Shown here one piece after another: positions 7,883 through 32,702 of a DNA stretch of 32,702 nucleotides. Every line of letters begins with the position of its first letter. The stretch's first letter is position 1. The position numbers were made by a program, and so were the translations under genes. Location of the stretch: NCBI GenBank assembly GCA_002633005.1, contig NMRA01000030.1:1136052-1168753 (forward strand), given 5' to 3'. The stretch is from Phoronis australis (lineage: Eukaryota; Animalia; Phoronida). Below the pieces are notes generated by a model. The model did not search any database, was not told the DNA's origin, and saw only the letters and a list, made by a program, of their open reading frames with translations.

Positions 7883-8697
7883 TTATATTTGGATGCATTA
7901 TGCTGTCATCCACGTCCGGCGTCTGCTGCTCTATCTCCTAAACCCTTTGAGGTATGTTCATGAAATTTTGCATGTGTTCATTTCATGGATGAGCTGGCAT
8001 AAGTGAACTTTGGGATAGATTCAACTACCGGTGTGCCCCCTAGTGACAATTTTAGTTTTTTACCACTTCTGTATCTTCAAAGATCTTCAACAGATTTCCA
8101 AAAAAATTGGCATATAGGCATCTATTAATGTGATGAAGCTATCCTCCCGTTTTCGGATGGATTCGAGATACTTTTGCGCCACCCGCTGGCTACTGTTACT
8201 GTTTTCGTTTTTGGAGTCCACCCCTCTATTAACCAGAGCATTCTAGGATGATTTTCAAAATTGGCAAATGTATATGTTCTCCGTGTGAAGAAGACAGTTG
8301 ATGATGGCGACTTCGACTATTGTGGCACTTCTTAGTGGCAGTTTTGTTTTACGTCCATAGCTCTATCTCCTAAACCCACTGCAGAATCTTTATTGAATTC
8401 AGAAGTTAACAACAGACGGCTACGACTTTCAGACAGATACCATGAATGCTGTGCCTTCTAGTGGCAATCTCATTTTTTTCCGATTTCCTTTGTTTCGCTA
8501 ATTTCCTTGGCTGCTTTTTATGAAATATGTTATATAACTTTCTATTAAAAAATGATGGCATGTACCCGATTTTGGATGGATTCCACATATTTTGCGCCAT
8601 CTAGTGGCCCCTTTTGTGATACATATAAACAAGCCTAGAAGCACACCATCTGTGGTGCATTCATAGGCAGATTTCAACGCTCCGCATTGCTCTTGTT
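7883..8697 (+). mobile_element. Helentron/HINE (DINE-1-like) non-autonomous element, copy A
   Basis: 5' gcattatgctgtcatc..cgtcc block, ~145-bp core repeats, 3' hairpin caacgctccgcattg followed by ctcttgtt; homologous to copies B and C; a decayed core unit also at ~7720-7800. Confidence 0.7.
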
Positions 8698-8911: not shown

Positions 8912-9115
8912 ACATTGTTTGACAATGTGTCCAAAAATGAAGTTGCAAAGGCTGAGAAGCCAGGTGAAGGCATCCCCGATCTGCCGTCACCAGGGGGCAA
9001 TAAGCCTGCCAATAAGCGACTGTCAGTGGAAAGAATCTACCAGAAGAAATCTCAACTGGAGCACATTTTGCTGCGTCCAGACACCTATATTGGATCTGTA
9101 GAGCCAGTTACTACT
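8912..9115 (+). CDS. TOP2: DNA topoisomerase II, first identified coding exon (an ATG exon must lie upstream)
   Basis: Pyrimidine tract + cag acceptor (8909-8911), gtaaga donor at 9116; 204 nt, TLFDNVSK...KRLSVERIYQKKSQLEHILLRPDTYIGSVEPVTT, the N-terminal type IIA topoisomerase motif. Confidence 0.96.
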
Positions 9116-10413: not shown

Positions 10414-10507
10414 TCGATGTGGCTTTATGATGAAGAAGTTCAGGGTATGATTCAGAGAGAGATTACATATGTTCCAGGCCTGTACAAGATATTTGATGAA
10501 ATTCTTG
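10414..10507 (+). CDS. TOP2: TOP2 exon (ATPase domain)
   Basis: ttacag acceptor, gtgagt donor; 94 nt, SMWLYDEEVQGMIQREITYVPGLYKIFDEIL(V); phases 0/1 fit the neighbours; too short for the ORF track. Confidence 0.96.
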
Positions 10508-11026
10508 GTGAGTGGACAGTCGAAAATAAGACTGCATGTTTAAATCAAAAGCTGTAATTGTGCTCCTTGTCTAGACTTGTTGCCTTGGTAGTGTAATAAA
10601 ATATGACCCACAGGTTTGGTTGTTAGGCAGGGACACTAAATTTGCTGACTTAAAATTGCATCTGATATTTGCACAGTACTACTGTATTAGCCCCAATAAG
10701 TGCTCAGGGCGCTTAGAAAAATTCGCTTCAGGAAAGAGGTGCTTATTATAGCCCACAAGTGGTTGAAACCCAGTCTCCGAAACAGGTGAAATATTCAGCT
10801 AGAATTCATCAAATTTATGCTGTGTGACGCATTTGTAACCTATGACAGTTTCTACAAAATTGCTGTGCATTGCTATCAAACTTTGTTGTTAAATACAATC
10901 ATTGTTCAGGAAATCCCAGTGTGGATTTTAAAGTTCGCCGCGTGGATTAGGTCTATAGTGACATGTATTAATCATGATTATATCATTGTACCAAAAAATC
11001 ATGTAATTTTTTATTCTTCATTGTTA

Positions 11027-11811
11027 GGGCTGTTCCAGTAAAATCTGTGTGGGAGGGGGGGACAGCAGTAGAAATAAAAATTCATGGGTGGTGGTCTTCA
11101 GAAAAAAACACAAATTATGGGTGGTCGTTCCTGTAAGAAGTGGTGCTTAAAAAATGGGTGGTATTTTTTGTCCTGTTAATGTTGACAGGTTGGTTACTTC
11201 AGCCCTCAAAACTCAAAACAAACCAATACAAAAAAGCCCATATTGCTAGTGAACAGAGTGCACTATGTTCACTAAGCCATTAATCAAGTCATGGGCAACT
11301 TGATTTGAGCCAACTGCAGTCCTATTGAATTGAAAAGTTATGCAACACTAAACTGGTGTTAACACATGTAAGAAAATTAATGATTTTTAAATAAAAATTA
11401 TGAGGAGTAAGATAAACAAGTTCCAATATTCACTTAACATAGAAGTATAAAAGATATCGTGGAGACAGTTTGAGATTCATAGATCCTTATAATTGAAAAA
11501 AATGTTCATTGAAATTATAGACACATGGTGAACAGAGACACCTGGTGGCTGCCAAAAGTATTGCTCACAGGCTACTTTAGTTTTTGACAATGTTGGACAA
11601 GACAACTAGTTCTTGTCTGTCAATCATCTAAGTTCTTAACAGGTCCTCCTGGAGCCAGTTTGTTTGCAAGTGTTGGATTTTATATTTTAACCTATTAAAA
11701 ATAATTAAAAAATGGGTCATGGGTTGGAGAAATAAATGAAAAATATGGGCGGTGGGTACGAAATAAAAGTGCCTTCCCCCCACTCCCATACAGATTTTGC
11801 TGGAACAGCCC
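11027..11811. mobile_element. PIF/Harbinger-like MITE
   Basis: TIRs GGGCTGTTCCAGTAAAATCTGTGTGGGAG / CTCCCATACAGATTTTGCTGGAACAGCCC; 3-bp TSD TTA (11024-11026, 11812-11814). Confidence 0.85.
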
Positions 11812-12255
11812 TTACACAACTCCTTGTTAAATCATAGATTATAGACAACAGATTCGCAACTCCGGCATATTCTTACGAGCTGAGTTGACCTCTCCTGACC
11901 TATCTGCTGCAGTTTCCGGTCAGTTTTAATTTGACGAGAAATACCTGCATCTACTTTACTGTCCAAAACAGCGAAAAAAACATTAATTTATATTAATTTC
12001 GGTATTGAAACGCTCTTCAAAATCTTTCAATAGTAGAAGTGTTGGTATTGTGAGTACTTTTGGCAATGCTACTGGTAATTAATTTCAAAATTCAAACTTC
12101 GGTTCCGACCCTTTATGTCGTCTGCTTGCCCAATAGCAGCATAGTTATCGGACAGTTTTTGATTTACGGTTCACATAGGCCTACTGAGAAAACTACGAAA
12201 GCGTGTTTATAAATCAACATTCTCAAGTGAGCAGTTCTTCTGGGCAGTGTTGAGT

Positions 12256-12271
12256 GGCCCTTAAAAGGGCC
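12256..12271 (-). terminator. Histone mRNA-type 3' stem-loop 2 with HDE-like element
   Basis: Minus strand CCAAC-GGCCCT-TTTA-AGGGCC-ACTCA, with flanks close to canonical CCAAA/ACCCA; purine-rich CAGAAGAAC 13 nt further on (12234-12242). Confidence 0.85.
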
Positions 12272-12296
12272 GTTGGTTGTAGGTATAGCGTGAAAT

Positions 12297-12312
12297 GGTT
12301 CTTAAAAGAACC
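12297..12312 (-). terminator. Histone mRNA-type 3' stem-loop 1
   Basis: Minus strand TCAAC-GGTTCT-TTTA-AGAACC-ATTTC: 6-bp stem, 4-nt loop, fits GGYYYU-UYUN-ARRRCC; 10 nt after the PHD stop codon. Confidence 0.8.
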
Positions 12313-12322
12313 GTTGAATAAT

Positions 12323-12640
12323 TCAACATAAATCACACAGTATGCCATGCTCACTCAAGTACTGAAGGTCCTCTTCATTAAAGTTTTCATCTGGAAAGGT
12401 TGGATGAAAACAGAGGAGATGACAATATCGATGACAGTTGTAACACCTTAGATAGATATCACCGTTCACCAACGTTGTCACGAACCCTGCATCGTTCAGT
12501 TCTTGTTCCTGTATCCACAAATAATCCTGAACTGTAGGAAAAAAATGACAAACAACACAACGAATCAAATTTCGAAAATCATCGCCTTCGTACGATTCCG
12601 TGTTGCTGTCACCAGACTGATGTTCTTCCCCAACGTCCAT
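12323..12640 (-). CDS. Intronless 105-aa PHD-finger-like protein (C4-H-C3)
   Basis: ATG at 12640; acidic N-terminus, then CVVC-x34-CYNC-x4-H-x2-C...CDLC-stop; all eight Zn ligands present, no disablements. Confidence 0.75.
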   Translation of the reverse strand: MDVGEEHQSGDSNTESYEGDDFRNLIRCVVCHFFPTVQDYLWIQEQELNDAGFVTTLVNGDIYLRCYNCHRYCHLLCFHPTFPDENFNEEDLQYLSEHGILCDLC

Positions 12641-12918
12641 CGTAAAAAATCGACGTTGCAAGTGATGGAAACTTGTCTACGCTCTCGTCCTTTGTTTCTA
12701 ACCTTTAACCCATTTTTTAATAAAGGGGTGTACTGTTTTTGGCTCATGTTGATAGTGCATAATCTATGATTTTACAATGTATTAATAGTGTTAAATGCAT
12801 ATATATGAACTGGTCTCATTGAGGTGCACAGCAAATAAATTAACTATAACAAATTAAAGTTTTGAAAATATAAAGAGCAGTAACAGACTCCCTAAAAATT
12901 AGGCTTGTTTTCGAAAGG

Positions 12919-12966
12919 TTTGCGCCATTGGTGATCCGATTGGTTCAATCGCTTGCGGCGGGAAAA
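12919..12966 (-). promoter_or_regulatory. E2F/CCAAT motif cluster upstream of the PHD ORF
   Basis: TTTTCCCGCC on minus strand (12957-12966), two CCAAT on minus strand (12927-12931, 12939-12943), TTTGCGCC on plus strand (12919-12926); TATATA near 12800. Confidence 0.5.
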
Positions 12967-14482
12967 TTGATAGACCCAGTTATTGTGCGCGTGTACACTG
13001 TATCAATGCTTTGTATCTTATTCTTATTTGTCTAATCTGTTGATACAGTAAATTTCCTTATTTATGCCCATCCTGATTTAACCCCGACTTGAGCTCCTTG
13101 GGTTTTACCATATTGGGGCTGTCCAGGGACTCACGTGCATGCGCGCACCCAGTCTTCAAAATGGGGGGCTCGAATTCCTGACGTTATGGAACTGTTGTTA
13201 ACAAGAGAGCGGGCAGACCTTTTTGCCCACTTCGCCAAATGGGGGGGGCTCGAACCCCCCCCCCTCTGAGTGGCGCACATGACGTGGTGCTTACTCGAAT
13301 GAGTTTCATTTTAGCGGCTATTTCCAATTGTGTAGGTGAAGTAAATTAACAAAGTGGATGATTATCATCACCGGTATTTCATCATTAGTATTTTTGTCGG
13401 CCTCTCAAGTTTTCCGTGGCTAGGGATTGTCACATCTGTAAGGTAGACGTGTTTCAGTGAACCTCCATGTTTGTGGCGTTATTTATACCTGACCAAACTT
13501 TGAAAAAGAAGCCCGCGTTTAAACCAGGAGCTGCATTGGGTGCAATTTGTGTAGACGTTTCATGCGCGCACCCAGCCTCTAATACGGGGGCTCGAATCTC
13601 TGGCAAAGTGGACCTTTTGCTAACAAAAAGCGTGAGAACTAAAATAAAAAACGGGGTGCTGCCGTATTGTGGACTTTCGTCTCTTTCTCTTGGACTTTTC
13701 CCCTGGGTGCGCGCATGCGTTTGTCTACGTTGCTAGTTTTTATAAAGGTGGGCCTGTCTGTAGCCAACTACGGTAAATTCATAAAAGGTCACGTGCAGTG
13801 CAACTCAAGTTCATTACAAATTAAAAATCCGAACTTTCAAACCGTTTGATCTGAGTTGACATCTCAAATCAAAATTATGAAAATGCCACATAAAAGTATG
13901 AAATTGAAAATTAGCACACGTCAGCTTCACGTCCCTACCACCCCCTTTATCTTGCTTGCTACCTCTTAGGGTTCATTTCCCTTGCTTCCGAGGTTTTTCG
14001 TTATTCTGGTATTTTCATAGACTGCAGCGTACTTGGCTAAGATGGTTCAAGTTTTGTGCGGCATACAGTCGACATAAATAATTGAGTATGTAACCTGCTG
14101 TTGAATTGCGGGATAGATTTTGACAGGTCCAGGTATTTATTTCTGAAGTATTAATGTAATCTTTATTTATGTTAAAGGTTTTACTAGCGTCCTATTTATT
14201 TGTACACGAATGTGAATTTGTTGAAATCGCTGATCCAAATCCTGGCCAAATCTGCGCATTATGCTGAGACCAACCGTCTGATCAGGGCCACCTAAGAGTA
14301 ATTTGGTTAATTCGCTCACTAGACTATGGCTGAAGGTCCTCGTAAGGACAAGAGTTCACCAGTCACTACCATTGGAAGAAATTTAGCGGACATTTTTCGT
14401 CAAAAAGTTTACCAGATAGTTTTCATCAAAACGGAGAAAAGAAAAATGGATTTGTGAAGACAGGATTAAGTAGTAGGCCTAC

Positions 14483-14688
14483 CAGAGCCTCTTAAAAAAC
14501 ACCCATCTTCGAAGTGTCGTGAACAAATGTATGAGTTTTTTTTTGGAAGAAAAACTTCCATTCACGTCGACGCAAGAACATAACTTTTTCTCCCAAAGCG
14601 GATTTTGTGGTCTTCGTACACTATGGAAGCTAACGCCTCTGCATTTCGCCTGCGTAGCCGAACAACCGGCCACACAGCAACCGACCAT
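14483..14688 (-). pseudogene. THAP-domain exon (transposase N-terminus) with one frameshift
   Basis: MVGCCVAGCS...GVSFHSV...LWEKKL, then after a one-base slip in an A9 run (14536-14544) NSYICSRHFEDGCF; followed by a G|gtaggc donor-like site; no catalytic domain found. Confidence 0.8.
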
Positions 14689-14957
14689 GATTAGCAGACG
14701 ACGTACTTGCCGGAAATTACACCAGATAATTGAGCCAGGTGTCGCCAGTGAATAATGACGTAAAGGCTTGTGCGTAAGACCACAGATTTCGTCCATTGAA
14801 AGTAAACGGAGTTGGCGGTCCATGTACTATAGTCTATGGTTAAATGGAGGGTTTTAATAAAAACTTTTCATCTGCAATGGCTTTAGGACGGCAAATGGTT
14901 TTCAGGCTCAAAATATTGGATTTTTTCCACAAGACAATGTCATGTTAATTCACTACT

Positions 14958-18079: not shown

Positions 18080-18336
18080 TAGTACAGCCTGTTCATACAG
18101 TCTCAGTCACTGTGAAACGTATGTGGTCGTAATGGTTATAAATAGTACAGCCTGTTCATACAGTCTCAGTCACTGTGAAACGTATGTGGTCGTAATGGTT
18201 ATAAGTAGTACAGCCTGTTCATACAGTCTCAGTCTCAGTCACTGTTACACGTAGGTGGTCGTAATGGTTATGGGTAGTACAGCCTGTTCATACAGTCTGT
18301 GTATCTGTCACACGTAGGTGGTCGTAATGGTTATGG
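18080..18336 (+). repeat. 63-bp tandem repeat (4 units) spanning a TOP2 splice acceptor
   Basis: Units start at 18080, 18143, 18206, 18275; each ends in cgta(t/g)gtggtcgtaatggttat, the acceptor plus the first exon codons. Confidence 0.92.
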
Positions 18337-19369: not shown

Positions 19370-20682
19370 CATATGACTTATGTTCATGAAATTTTGCGCA
19401 TGTCTTCCTTTCATGGATGGGACGGCATGATCGAACTTTCGGACGGATTCGACTACCGGTCGGCCTAGTGGCAATTTTAGTTTTTTATGCTTACCTCTAT
19501 ATCTTCAAAGGTCTTCAGTGTATTTTCTTAAAATCTGGCATGTAGGCATCTATTAGTGAGATGACGCTGTCCACACGTTTTGGGATAGATTCGACATAAT
19601 TTGCGCCACCTAGTGGCCATTTTTACTGTTTTCGAGTATGCTTTTTGTTGTCCACCCCTCTATCAACCAAACCACTCTAAGGATGGTTGTGGAAATTGGC
19701 ATGTATGTTCTTACCATGTAGAGGACGACTGACAATGATTTTCCGATGATTTCGGCAACTGTGGCGCCTCCTAGTGGCAGTTTTTTTTTCGCCTATGGCT
19801 GTATCTCCTAAACCGTCTGCAGGATCTTTATTACTAAATGTAGTAAGTACATTTATATGATGTTGACAAAGGACGATGACGACTTTCGGACGTAGTTGAC
19901 TACTGCTGTGCCCCCTGGTGGTAATTTTATTTTTTTTCAAGTTAACCTCTGTATCTTCAAAGGTCCTCAATGTATTTTCAAAAAATTTGGCATACGGGCT
20001 TCTGTTAGTGTGGTGACGCTACATTTCCGTTTTCAGATGGATTCGACGTAGTTTACGCCACCTAGTGGCCATTTTTACTGTTTTCGAGTCTGTTTTTTGG
20101 CGTCCACCCCTCTATCAACCAAATCGCTTTCAGGATAATTGTGAAAATTGGCATGTATGTTTTTTTTTTATGAAGTGGACGGCTGACAATGATTTTCTGA
20201 TGACTTCAGCTGATGTGGCGTCTCCTAGTGGCAGTTTCGTTTTTTGCGCTCATGGCTGTATCTCTTAAACTGTTTGCAGAATCCTTACTAAATTTAATAA
20301 GTGTATTTATATGATGTTGACAAAGAACAACAACGACTTTCGGACGGATCTGACTACTGGTGTGCCCCCTGGTGCCAATTTTAGATTTTACTTTTACCTC
20401 TGTATCTTCAAGTGTCCTCAACGGATTTTCATAAAATTTTGAATACAGGCATATGTTGGTGGCAGTTTTTATTCTATTCTGTTTTTTTTTTGTTTCTCTG
20501 AAGTTCCGTGACAGATTTCTATGAAATTTGGTGAATAGCTTTCTATTAAAGAGGCTATGACATCTTCCAATTTTTAGATGAATAATACGTTTTTGTGCCA
20601 TCTAGTGACCATTTTTATGACCAAGAAACAACCCTTTCGATGCATTCGTGGGCGCATTTCAACGCTCCGCATTGCTCTTGTT
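19370..20682 (+). mobile_element. Helentron/HINE-like element, copy B
   Basis: ~450-bp higher-order core repeats; same 3' end gcgcatttcaacgctccgcattgctcttgtt as copies A and C. Confidence 0.72.
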
Positions 20683-27929: not shown

Positions 27930-29785
27930 TATTTTATATGTGTACGCATTATGCCGTCATCTCCGTCCGGTGTCCGGTGTCCGCCTTAACGTATGTTCCT
28001 GAAATTTTGCTCATGTGTTCCTTTTGTGAATGGAACGGCATGAGCGAACTTTCAGATGGATCCGACTACCGGTGTGCCCCCTAGTGGCAATTTTAGTTTT
28101 AGTTTACCTCTGTATCTTCAAAAGTCCTGCATAAAATTTGGTATATTGGCACCTATTAGGGAGATGACGCTATCCTCCGGTTTTCGTATGGATTTGACGT
28201 AGTTTGCGCCACCTAGTGGCCATTTTTACTGTTTTCGATTCTGTTTCTTTGCATCCACCCCTCTACCAGCCAAACCGCTCAAAGGATGATTGTGAAAATT
28301 GGCATGTATGCTTTTACTATAAAGTGGATGGCTGACGATGGTTTTCTGACGACTTCGACTACTGTGGCTCCTTCTAGTGACAGTTTTGTTTTTTGCACCT
28401 ATGGCTGTATCCCCTAAACCATTCGTAGGATCTGTACTAAATTTAGTAAGTGTATTGACATGATGTTAACAACGGAGAATGACAACTTTCAGACAGATCT
28501 GACTACTGATGTGCCACCTAGTGGCAATTTTATTTTTTTACGTTTACCTCTGTATGTTCCAAGGTCTTCAACGTATTTTCATAAAATTTGGCATACAGGC
28601 ATCTGTTAATGAGGTGACGCTATCTCTTCATTTTCAGATGAATTCGACCTAGTTTGCGCCACCTAGTGGCTATTTTTACTGATTTTGAGTCCGTTTTTTG
28701 GGGTACACTCGTCTATCAAACAAACGGCTTTCAGGATAATTGTGGAAATTTGCATGTATGTGTTTACTATGAAGTGGACAGCTAACGACGATTTTCCGAT
28801 GAGTTCAAATACTGTGGCGCCTCCTAGTGGCAGTTTTGTTGTTTTTGTGCTCATGGCTGTATCTATTAAGCCGTTTGCAGGATCTTTACTTAATTTAGCA
28901 AGTGTATTTATATGATGTTGACAATGGACGATGACGACTTTCGGACGGATCTGGTGTGCCCCCTAGTGGCAAGTTTAGTTTTTTATGTTTACCAGTCTGT
29001 ATCTTCAAAGGTCCTCAACAGATTTTCATAAAATTTTGATTATAGGCATCTATTGGTGAGATGACGCTATCATCCTGTTTTTGGATGGAATCGAGGTATT
29101 TTGCGCCACCTGATGGTCATTTTTGCTGTTTTCAAATCTTGTTTTTGACGTCCACCCCTCGATAAACCAAATCATTCTAGGGATGGTTTTGAAAATTGGC
29201 GTACATGTTTTCAGTGTGAAGAGGACGTTTGATGATGGTGAGTGACTACTGTGGCGCCTCCTAGTGGTAGTTTTGTTTTGTTTTACGTCCACAGCTGTAT
29301 CTTCAAAACCAACTACAGGATTTTTANTGTTACCAGAGCACCCATTTGATCCCAGTGGGTCATTTGTGGCCCGTAATTAAAAATGCTAGTAAAACTAATT
29401 AAAATGAAACAATCTCACCAAAACTCCAACTTATCTTCATAAAGTTGTCATATCTGTCATTTACTTAATTTTTGAAGCAAAAAAAAAAGTTGGGCATAAA
29501 TGGGTTAAATTTAGTAAGTGAATTTATATGAAGATAACAGACGACGACTCAGGCGGATGGAATGGACGCTGTGCCCGCAAGTGGCAATTTCATTTTGTTC
29601 TGTTTTCCTTTTTTTCTCTGAAGTTCCTTGACAGATTTATATGAAATATGGTATGTTCCCGTTTTTGGATGGATTGTACGTTTTTGCGCCATCTAGTGGC
29701 CATTTTTATGATACAAATAACCCTAAAAGCACACCATTTGCGATACATTCATGGGCGCATTTCAACGCTCCGCGTTGCTCTTGTT
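27930..29785 (+). mobile_element. Helentron/HINE-like element, copy C
   Basis: 5' gcattatgccgtcatc + gtcc-rich repeat, three ~450-bp higher-order units, perfect 3' hairpin CAACGC-TCC-GCGTTG then ctcttgtt. Confidence 0.75.
29341..29504. mobile_element. Possible piggyBac-like MITE remnant inside copy C
   Basis: CCCATTT...AAATGGG followed by TTAA on the right; left flank disrupted and close to an N at 29327. Confidence 0.4.
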
Positions 29786-31207: not shown

Positions 31208-31462
31208 TTGCTGTTGAATGTTACAGCGTTTATCTAACAAATCACTTTTTTCGGTGTTAGTTGCAGAAATTTGTTTCAATTTATTACTTGATTTTAAGGA
31301 TTGGATGACTTGACATTTTGAGGCGGAATATTGGTATATAACCAACTTAAACATCAACATTGGAACACATATAAATCTGCTATCATGATTAATTGTTTCA
31401 GCAAGTTAATCATAGGTGAGAAGAACTATCCTCTTTGAAACGTGATGTCATGTATGTGAGGA

Positions 31463-31700
31463 AGGGGCTGGGGTGTACTTAAATATACAGTAAGGTGTGA
31501 TAGGGCCTGGGGAGCACTTAAATGTACAATAAGGAGTGATAGGGGCTGGAGTGTACTTAAATATACAATAAGGTGTGGTAGGGGCTAGGGTGTACTTAAA
31601 TGTACAATAATGAGTGATAGGGACTGGGGTGTACTTAAATATACAATAAGATGTGATAGGGGCTGGGATGTACTTAAATATACAATAAGGAGTGATAGGA
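31463..31700. repeat. 39-bp minisatellite, 6 copies
   Basis: Consensus aggggctggggtgtacttaaatatacaataaggagtgat. Confidence 0.92.
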
Positions 31701-31848
31701 CCAATTTTGGGTTGAGACCACATAACCAAGATTTTGTATCTTACTAAAGTTACTACAAGCTTGCCTTAAATCAATAAAATGTCTTTATCTTGACCTTTTG
31801 TTGCTACAAAAGTGGTTCCTTACTCCTACAAGAAGTGATTTATGAGTG

Positions 31849-32300
31849 GTAAGAACTGCTAGCCCTTAATTACTTGAGACCATATTCTGAATCTGTGTGT
31901 AAGAATTTGTAGTCCTTGATTACTTTAGACCATACTCTGTATCTGTGTGTAAGAATTTGTAGTCCTTGATTACTTTAGACCATACTCTGTATCTGTATGT
32001 AAGAATTTGTAGTCCTTGATTACTTTAGACCATACTCTGTATCTGTGTGTAAGAATTGGAAGTCCTTGATGACTTGAGACCATACTCTGTATCTGTGTGT
32101 AAGAATTTGTAGTCCTTGATTACTTGAGACCATACTCTGTATCTGTGTGTAAGAATTTGTAGTCCTTGATTACTTTAGACCATACTCTGTATCTGTGTGT
32201 AAGAATTGATAGCCCTTGATGACTTGACACCATACTCTGTATCTGTGTGTAAGAATTTGTAGCCCTTGATTACTTGAGACCATACTCTGTATCTGTGTGT
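31849..32300. repeat. 50-bp minisatellite, 9 copies
   Basis: Consensus gtaagaatttgtagtccttgattacttgagaccatactctgtatctgtgt. Confidence 0.95.
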
Positions 32301-32437
32301 ACCGTATAACAACATGCCATAACTTGCCTGGCATCAAGCTGTTATGAATTTGTTACGTAGATCTTCCCCAACCAAGAAATCGGTTGTAAAGAACAACTTG
32401 AGACGAGCATTGTATTGGTAAATGGTCTCCATCAAAA

Positions 32438-32702
32438 CATAGATTATAGACAACAGATTCGCAACTCCGGCATATTCTTACGAGCTGAGTTGACCTCTAA
32501 TGACCTATCTGCTGCAGTTTCCGGTCAGTTTTAATTTGACGAGAAATACCTGCATCTACTTTACTGTCTAAAACAGCGAAAAAAACATTAATTTATATTA
32601 ATTTCGGTATTGAAACGCTTTTCAAAGTCTTTCAATAGTAGAAGTGTTGGTATTGTGAGTACTTTTGGCAATGCTACTGGTAATTAATTTCAAAATTCAA
32701 AC
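32438..32702 (-). mobile_element. Second copy (left end) of the P-like element, truncated by the window edge
   Basis: Colinear with 11833-12097, 5 substitutions counted in 265 bp; similarity starts exactly at CATAG. Confidence 0.93.

Follow-up and report, generated by a model that had tools for sequence, protein, structure and literature searches.

What kind of mobile element occupies a 3-kb segment of Phoronis australis DNA, where did the small gene inside it come from, and why does that gene end like a histone gene? These questions are raised by positions 11833-14838 of the 32,702-nucleotide stretch of contig NMRA01000030.1 analysed here (the window), where a transposable element with terminal inverted repeats (TIRs) holds the remnant of a THAP exon and an open reading frame (ORF) for a PHD-like finger. 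The reading that we favour, with a probability of about one half, is that of a repeated non-autonomous TIR element that a transposase of the P type mobilises in trans and whose PHD gene derives from a Sola-type transposon and carries histone 3′ signals, with expression in S phase via stem-loop binding protein (SLBP) and the U7 small nuclear ribonucleoprotein (U7 snRNP).

The PHD gene and its histone-type 3′ signals

The PHD gene is an intact, intronless ORF of 105 amino acids (P0001, 12323-12640, minus strand) that codes for a stand-alone PHD-like finger and is co-oriented with the THAP exon, as an earlier note on this DNA had stated. Absent from that note is the most unusual feature of the element, i.e. 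two tandem histone-type stem-loops behind the PHD stop codon. The proximal one (12297-12312, minus strand) begins 10 nt past the stop, so that a consensus stem-loop follows the stop codon as in a replication-dependent histone-type 3′ end, and the distal one (12256-12271, minus strand) lies 41 nt apart from it. A strict stem-loop pattern occurs twice in the window, with 0.02 occurrences expected, both at most 70 nt from the PHD stop and on the PHD sense strand. The distal stem-loop is the sole Rfam match in the window (RF00032, Histone3, 34.8 bits at a gathering score of 34; match 12230-12276) and forms in the minimum free energy (MFE) fold; the proximal one scores 22.8 bits with the same family (E = 0.0035), which is under the gathering score. 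Inside the Rfam match, 13 nt past the distal stem, lies a purine-rich tract (12234-12242, minus strand), a putative element of the histone downstream element (HDE) type. Within 12234-12312 (minus strand) the MFE fold allows the proximal stem-loop to pair through its 5′ arm with this tract, a possible alternative structure. Neither AATAAA nor ATTAAA is found on the PHD strand from the PHD stop to 11930, and the element contains no histone coding remnant.

A candidate promoter lies upstream of the ORF (12865-12965, minus strand), with an E2F-type motif at 12965, CCAAT motifs at 12943 and 12931 and a TATA-like motif at 12874. The combination of E2F and two CCAAT motifs (12965-12927) occurs once in the window, compared with 0.01 times in 300 shuffles, for a pattern that was picked after the cluster had been seen. 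The same combination precedes the PHD gene in one of the eight relative loci described below (L002); alignment of the promoter region to L001 and L002 was no better than that of shuffled sequence.

These features resemble replication-dependent histone genes as described in passages of PMC2781718, i.e. an intronless ORF, a stem-loop soon after the stop, a downstream purine tract and CCAAT-type motifs. They differ from metazoan genes of this kind in that a PHD finger is encoded, the gene resides in a mobile element, there are two tandem stem-loops, and processing is a prediction only. The mRNA is thus predicted, from the motifs, to be non-polyadenylated and replication-timed. The same passages describe the stem-loop 3′ end as unique to histone mRNAs and do not implicate SLBP in the regulation of other genes. 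In our literature search, with Repbase, Dfam and four key papers outside its scope, a PHD gene that is borne by a transposon and followed by histone stem-loops was not found described. It is possible, with the odds somewhat against it, that a cut-and-paste transposon family has rewired a chromatin-reader gene from another superfamily into the histone mRNA pathway by means of E2F/CCAAT motifs, tandem stem-loops and an HDE, yielding an mRNA that is made in S phase only and lacks a poly(A) tail. If true, a transposon gene with a stem-loop 3′ end would break the histone-only rule, and selfish elements would have a route to time a protein to replication.

The protein itself shows all eight positions of the C4HC3 ligand pattern of PHD fingers. 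Taken alone it barely matches Pfam PHD (E = 0.88), and 7 of 11 family members match PHD_NSD (best E = 3.2e-7). In searches with its structure model (pLDDT, i.e. predicted local distance difference test, 81.6) PHD fingers ranked best in both cases (Foldseek E = 0.021; Z = 4.6, root-mean-square deviation 2.5, 59 residues aligned), and according to the model P0001 probably adopts the PHD fold, although the scores are weak. A full protein scan returned eight representatives, seven of them real; P0010, a repetitive false match, was excluded from the alignments. Of 594 candidates in the profile search, 31 clusters passed at E ≤ 0.001; for the most part they measure 94-111 amino acids and share 32-42% identity with P0001. 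In an alignment of 28 rows, five of the zinc ligands never vary and the other three are present in at least 90%. A number of the clusters comprise more than one member located on megabase contigs, and Dreissena polymorpha accounts for two. By sequence, the PHD protein is a member of a conserved stand-alone family of 31 clusters, and a class of function can be named for a family of 108-amino-acid proteins that had no annotation.

Transposase-linked relatives of the PHD gene

The origin of the PHD gene is indicated by its relatives in metagenomes. An initial scan gave 90 pattern matches, none of which was confirmed; a scan for PHD loci gave ten, of which eight are real. L009, L010, L011 and L012 (4 of 12 loci) were chance matches and were dropped. 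In seven of the eight real loci the PHD ORF lies directly before transposase-related sequence (weak in L008; L003 is cut inside the PHD), and in L002, L004 and L005 the next ATG follows 3 nt past the PHD stop. The two ORFs are tightly packed in L001, L002, L004, L005, L006 and L007, the gap from stop to ATG being as short as 2 nt, which suggests a bicistronic message, and a splice-acceptor-like sequence stands ahead of the PHD ATG in L001-L003 and L007. In L004 a fragment at 1270-2197, presumably of a reverse transcriptase judging from its motifs, adjoins and truncates the 5′ half of the PHD.

The downstream ORF matches DUF7869 (27.7 bits, cut-off 26; Atlas 0.97) and has three acidic motifs, which may be those of the Sola1 type. 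No Sola alignment was found in the parts searched of the supplement of PMC3985635, and the Sola1 label is therefore tentative. The structure model of the ORF (pLDDT 38) was too poor for a fold search, comparison with PDB sequences gave no match, and neither TIRs nor a 4-bp target-site duplication (TSD), i.e. no termini, were found within the short contigs of the donor loci. Independent support comes from a Dreissena gene model that joins the PHD to a 40-amino-acid tail 60% identical to this transposase.

None of the eight PHD loci has a histone stem-loop. As seven of the eight relatives directly precede a DUF7869 transposase ORF and none is followed by a stem-loop, the donor of the PHD gene was likely a Sola-type transposon (DUF7869, Sola-like DDD) and not a Polinton or virus. 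The earlier note had proposed capture of the cassette from another mobile element as one possibility, and the linkage to a DUF7869 transposase speaks for it. Our element resembles Sola-type DDD transposons with DUF7869 in that its PHD belongs to the family that immediately precedes a transposase ORF of this kind in seven of eight loci; it differs in that the transposase is absent, the TSD has 7 bp and stem-loops follow the PHD (Sola transposases are of the DDD type and make 4-bp TSDs according to passages of PMC10741241). No trace of a DUF7869-type transposase was detected in the window, and the element shows no DNA-level similarity to the donor loci, where tblastn matches the PHD only. A PHD ORF in Sola elements was not found described in the literature, with Repbase and the founding paper outside the scope of this search, and the passages of PMC5751038, PMC10294476 and bioRxiv 2021.09.26.461848 that were available contain no 'PHD'.

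The same PHD family thus exists without stem-loops and in front of a transposase, which provides a built-in control against which one can date and test how the signal was gained. The PHD gene would also represent an accessory gene common to two unrelated transposon types. Academ DNA transposons likewise encode a PHD finger; our element shares with them the presence of this finger in a DNA transposon, but has neither a helicase nor an Academ transposase, and we know of no histone 3′ signals in Academ.

The carrying element and the competing explanations

The element begins with CATAG, finishes with CTATG and is flanked by an exact 7-bp TSD, GTTAAAT (11826-11832 and 14839-14845). Its imperfect TIRs, i.e. 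CATAG...CAACTCCG on the left (11833-11864, plus strand) and its counterpart on the right (14807-14838, minus strand), agree in 22 of 32 terminal bases, so that the ends, the approximately 32-bp TIRs and the TSD seen in the earlier note all stand. Contigs with other flanks terminate at 11833 (22 in run X1, 23 in run X4) and at 14838 (16 in X4); here as in all contig comparisons, the counts hold among the matches listed, which are the smaller part of all matches. X1 and X4 are DNA sequencing runs, and no run listed as holding the element is recorded as RNA.

At the very start of the coding side of the element stands the THAP exon remnant (14475-14685, minus strand; ATG at 14685), which has a frameshift in A/T runs near 14535-14556 and ends after CxxH. 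Bridged with X at the frameshift it scores 32.2 bits, above the Pfam THAP cut-off of 23.9, and matches positions 1-60 of the 87 in the profile; without bridging it reaches E = 0.077 only. No relevant Pfam family, and hence no transposase core, was found in any of the 12 minus-strand read-throughs of the other segments, in which two unrelated matches were weak (E = 0.05 and 0.24). A left-arm peptide that resembled a transposase C-terminus was dropped, as Pfam did not support it. The earlier note had taken this for a TIR element that bears THAP, has a 7-bp TSD and, having no catalytic transposase, is non-autonomous, and this view is borne out. CA...TG ends are typical of P elements. TIRs combined with a 7-bp TSD (read at one locus; 7 or 8 bp in the superfamily) and an N-terminal THAP fit as well: 1360 and Galileo generate 7-bp TSDs and P transposases begin with THAP (passages of PMC3698922). 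We thus consider it quite probable that the element belongs to the P superfamily.

Contigs with at most four differences and depths of 115-229 (X1, X4) cover 11839-12045, 12421-13063, 13256-13757, 13630-14009 and 14402-14644, and together take in the left arm, the PHD gene with its promoter, two nested transposable elements of the miniature inverted-repeat type (MITEs A and B) and the THAP exon. Diverged relatives at depths of 4-43 span the PHD, the stem-loops and the promoter (record 2 of X1, record 9 of X4); the former, which is 86% identical, stays in alignment across the proximal stem as far as 12290. A run labelled as a second species has 12204-12330 with two differences, plus PHD pieces, the promoter and both arms. 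As relatives diverged by 10-14% already hold the PHD and a stem-loop, the cassette would have become resident in the THAP element. In three records (9, 17 and 18) the alignment breaks off at 12204-12208, which is likely the junction of the cassette with the left arm (11833-12208, no Pfam match), and relatives also break at 12855 (records 9, 13, 17 and 18 overall).

Based on these findings we propose that the PHD gene came out of a bicistronic element in which it preceded the transposase, perhaps bringing along its E2F/CCAAT promoter, and that histone 3′ signals came to replace the transposase ORF behind it. The cassette would then have been linked to the THAP element, with the junction at about 12204-12208, and have become resident; two MITEs would have inserted and a young subfamily would have spread, probably mobilised in trans by a P-type transposase. 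SLBP and the U7 snRNP may cut the transcript after a stem-loop, which would confine the PHD protein to S phase, where it might act as chromatin reader or decoy that aids transposition or eases silencing. Non-autonomous P superfamily elements (1360/Galileo, BuT5-like; passages of PMC3698922) are alike in their short imperfect TIRs, 7-bp TSD, N-terminal THAP exon and short derivatives, and differ from our element, which has no transposase core that would confirm membership and contains a further gene, equipped with promoter-like motifs of its own and with histone 3′ signals. Multicopy Pack-TIRs (Tan et al. 2021, passages of PMC8277862) are alike as non-autonomous TIR elements that amplify a captured gene; here, the relatives of the cargo are transposon-borne rather than a host gene, and the 3′ end of the cargo differs from that of its relatives. 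The gene-carrying element may thus be regarded as a variant of multicopy Pack-TIRs, the unusual part being a transposon-derived cargo that ends in a histone-type signal.

Several observations weigh against this reading. The proximal stem-loop, below the Rfam cut-off, is outcompeted by another pairing in the MFE fold, and the PHD fold scores of P0001 (E = 0.021; Z = 4.6) are weak. In three raw RNA runs every bin is covered in either orientation; coverage does not fall after the stem-loops, and 3′ ends do not accumulate at the predicted cut sites 12292 and 12251, about 5 nt past each stem; the sole nearby RNA end comprises six molecules at 12282 (X8). The library selection of these runs is unspecified, about 18-19% of each was read, and intronic reads are to be expected. 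An mRNA of this kind would be depleted in poly(A)-selected libraries and copies within introns contribute background, so that the RNA result is compatible with processing as well as with its absence. A splice of the THAP exon was not found among 15 of the 22 RNA joints. Close relatives show decay: P0003 (96% identical) lacks the His ligand and the C-terminus and P0004 (68%) lacks three ligands; the nine best-supported coding differences comprise four synonymous and five other changes, one of them a stop if read singly, i.e. with neighbours ignored. P0001 and P0004 form a long branch without a settled place, and therefore the tree does not show the direction of transfer. Two assemblies, which probably represent a single host, contributed the eight donor loci, in about four families. 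Neither the whole element nor a complete second copy is spanned by any one contig, and short derivatives made up of the ends alone contribute to the flank counts. Contig depth is raw depth and not copy number, and X1 and X4 may include the source of the window itself. A word search, which is weak evidence, gave no candidate for a longer protein homologous to the THAP remnant, i.e. for the parent transposase.

Some of these points would suit an inert Pack-TIR chimera, in which template switching or gap filling patched a PHD fragment and a piece of the 3′ flank of a histone gene into the element, which carries them passively, and the stem-loops go unused. Such patching gives rise to Pack-TIRs in animals (passages of PMC8277862), an RNA 3′ end at the stem-loops is not seen, and the close relatives P0003 and P0004 are broken, with mixed coding differences. 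Yet the stem-loop stands 10 nt past the stop, in sense orientation and twice, without any histone coding remnant, the ORF is complete and accompanied by promoter-like motifs, and the 86%-identical relative is aligned through the proximal stem to 12290, which leaves the inert chimera possible but rather unlikely. We give still less credit to the same anatomy with a parent other than a P element, e.g. a THAP-bearing hAT-type transposase. hAT families with 7-bp TSDs are listed in Repbase (passages of PMC4455052), THAP is found N-terminal to DUF4371/hAT transposases (passages of PMC3985635), and the element has no catalytic domain that would speak to its parent; against this, CA...TG ends, a THAP exon right at the beginning and the 7-bp TSD jointly match P elements of the 1360/Galileo type (passages of PMC3698922). 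As the parent transposase was not found and hAT-type elements share both 7-bp TSDs and N-terminal THAP, the P label put forward in the earlier note is likely but unproven.

It is improbable that the PHD and stem-loop are, or once were, a mobile unit of their own (e.g. 11833-12768) and that the 3-kb element arose as a composite through alternative-end transposition. An exact copy of the terminal 10-mer at 12759-12768 and the breaks of relatives at 12204-12208 and 12855 would fit such a unit, but the similarity to the TIR fades beyond 10-14 bases, no loose ends lie at 12768 among the matches listed, and contigs continue through 12768 in X1, X4 and X6. Finally, a Maverick/Polinton or DNA virus as source of the cassette, which the earlier note had named as an example, is highly improbable: PHD relatives in IMG/VR viral contigs numbered none in one search and one in another, a weak match with 9 bits against the family profile, the TIR pattern gave nothing real in viral contigs, and the real PHD loci are transposase-linked. 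A viral or Polinton context of PHD relatives was thus not found in IMG/VR, where host-integrated Polintons are poorly covered.

Nested elements and surroundings

Two MITEs of one family are nested in the THAP element. MITE A (13138-13281, 144 bp) has a 5-bp TSD, ACGTG, and contigs that terminate at 13138 with other flanks number 32 and 52; MITE B (13561-13717, 157 bp) has the 5-bp TSD CGTTT and eight such contigs at 13718. The family is of high copy, with CATG ends and 5-bp TSDs, and one subfamily of the element skips 13114-13333, hence being without MITE A. Both MITEs account for much of the GC-rich look that had made the cassette appear foreign. The earlier note had named a one-off nested insertion of the cassette as a case against its reading; this does not apply to the PHD cassette, covered like the rest of the element by near-identical contigs of similar depth, but it does apply to the two MITEs inside 12200-13900. 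The inward-facing copy of the left terminus (12759-12768, minus strand), possibly a relic end, is one of three exact 10-mer matches in the window (0.07 expected), the remaining two being the true termini. The adjacent base, 12769 (within 12759-12775), is a different one in the majority of other copies.

A second copy of the left end lies at 32438-32702 (plus strand, 98% identical, 5 differences in 265 bases) and continues beyond the window. It reaches past 12063-12073, where short derivatives jump to the right end; end-only derivatives of this kind have joints at 11862-14680, 12065-14670 and 12073-14684. Both copies fall on one gene. Exons on the plus strand between 9038 and 30922, which encode topoisomerase II judging from their motifs, show these motifs at 9038, 10480, 15629, 17559, 18317, 30248 and 30737, and the 3-kb element sits antisense in the intron between the exons at 10480 and 15629. 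At 18254-18330 the beginning of the exon with GGRNG is copied in a 63-69-bp tandem repeat.

A tRNA search of the window found none. A family of approximately 450-bp repeats with a recurrent GCGCCACCTAGTGG motif, together with tandem arrays of 39 and 50 bp, is found among 7900-8600, 19400-20600, 28000-29700 and 31456-32351. To the left, the 3-kb element is adjoined by a separate element of about 795 bp (11022-11816) with 40-bp inverted ends and a high RNA read depth.

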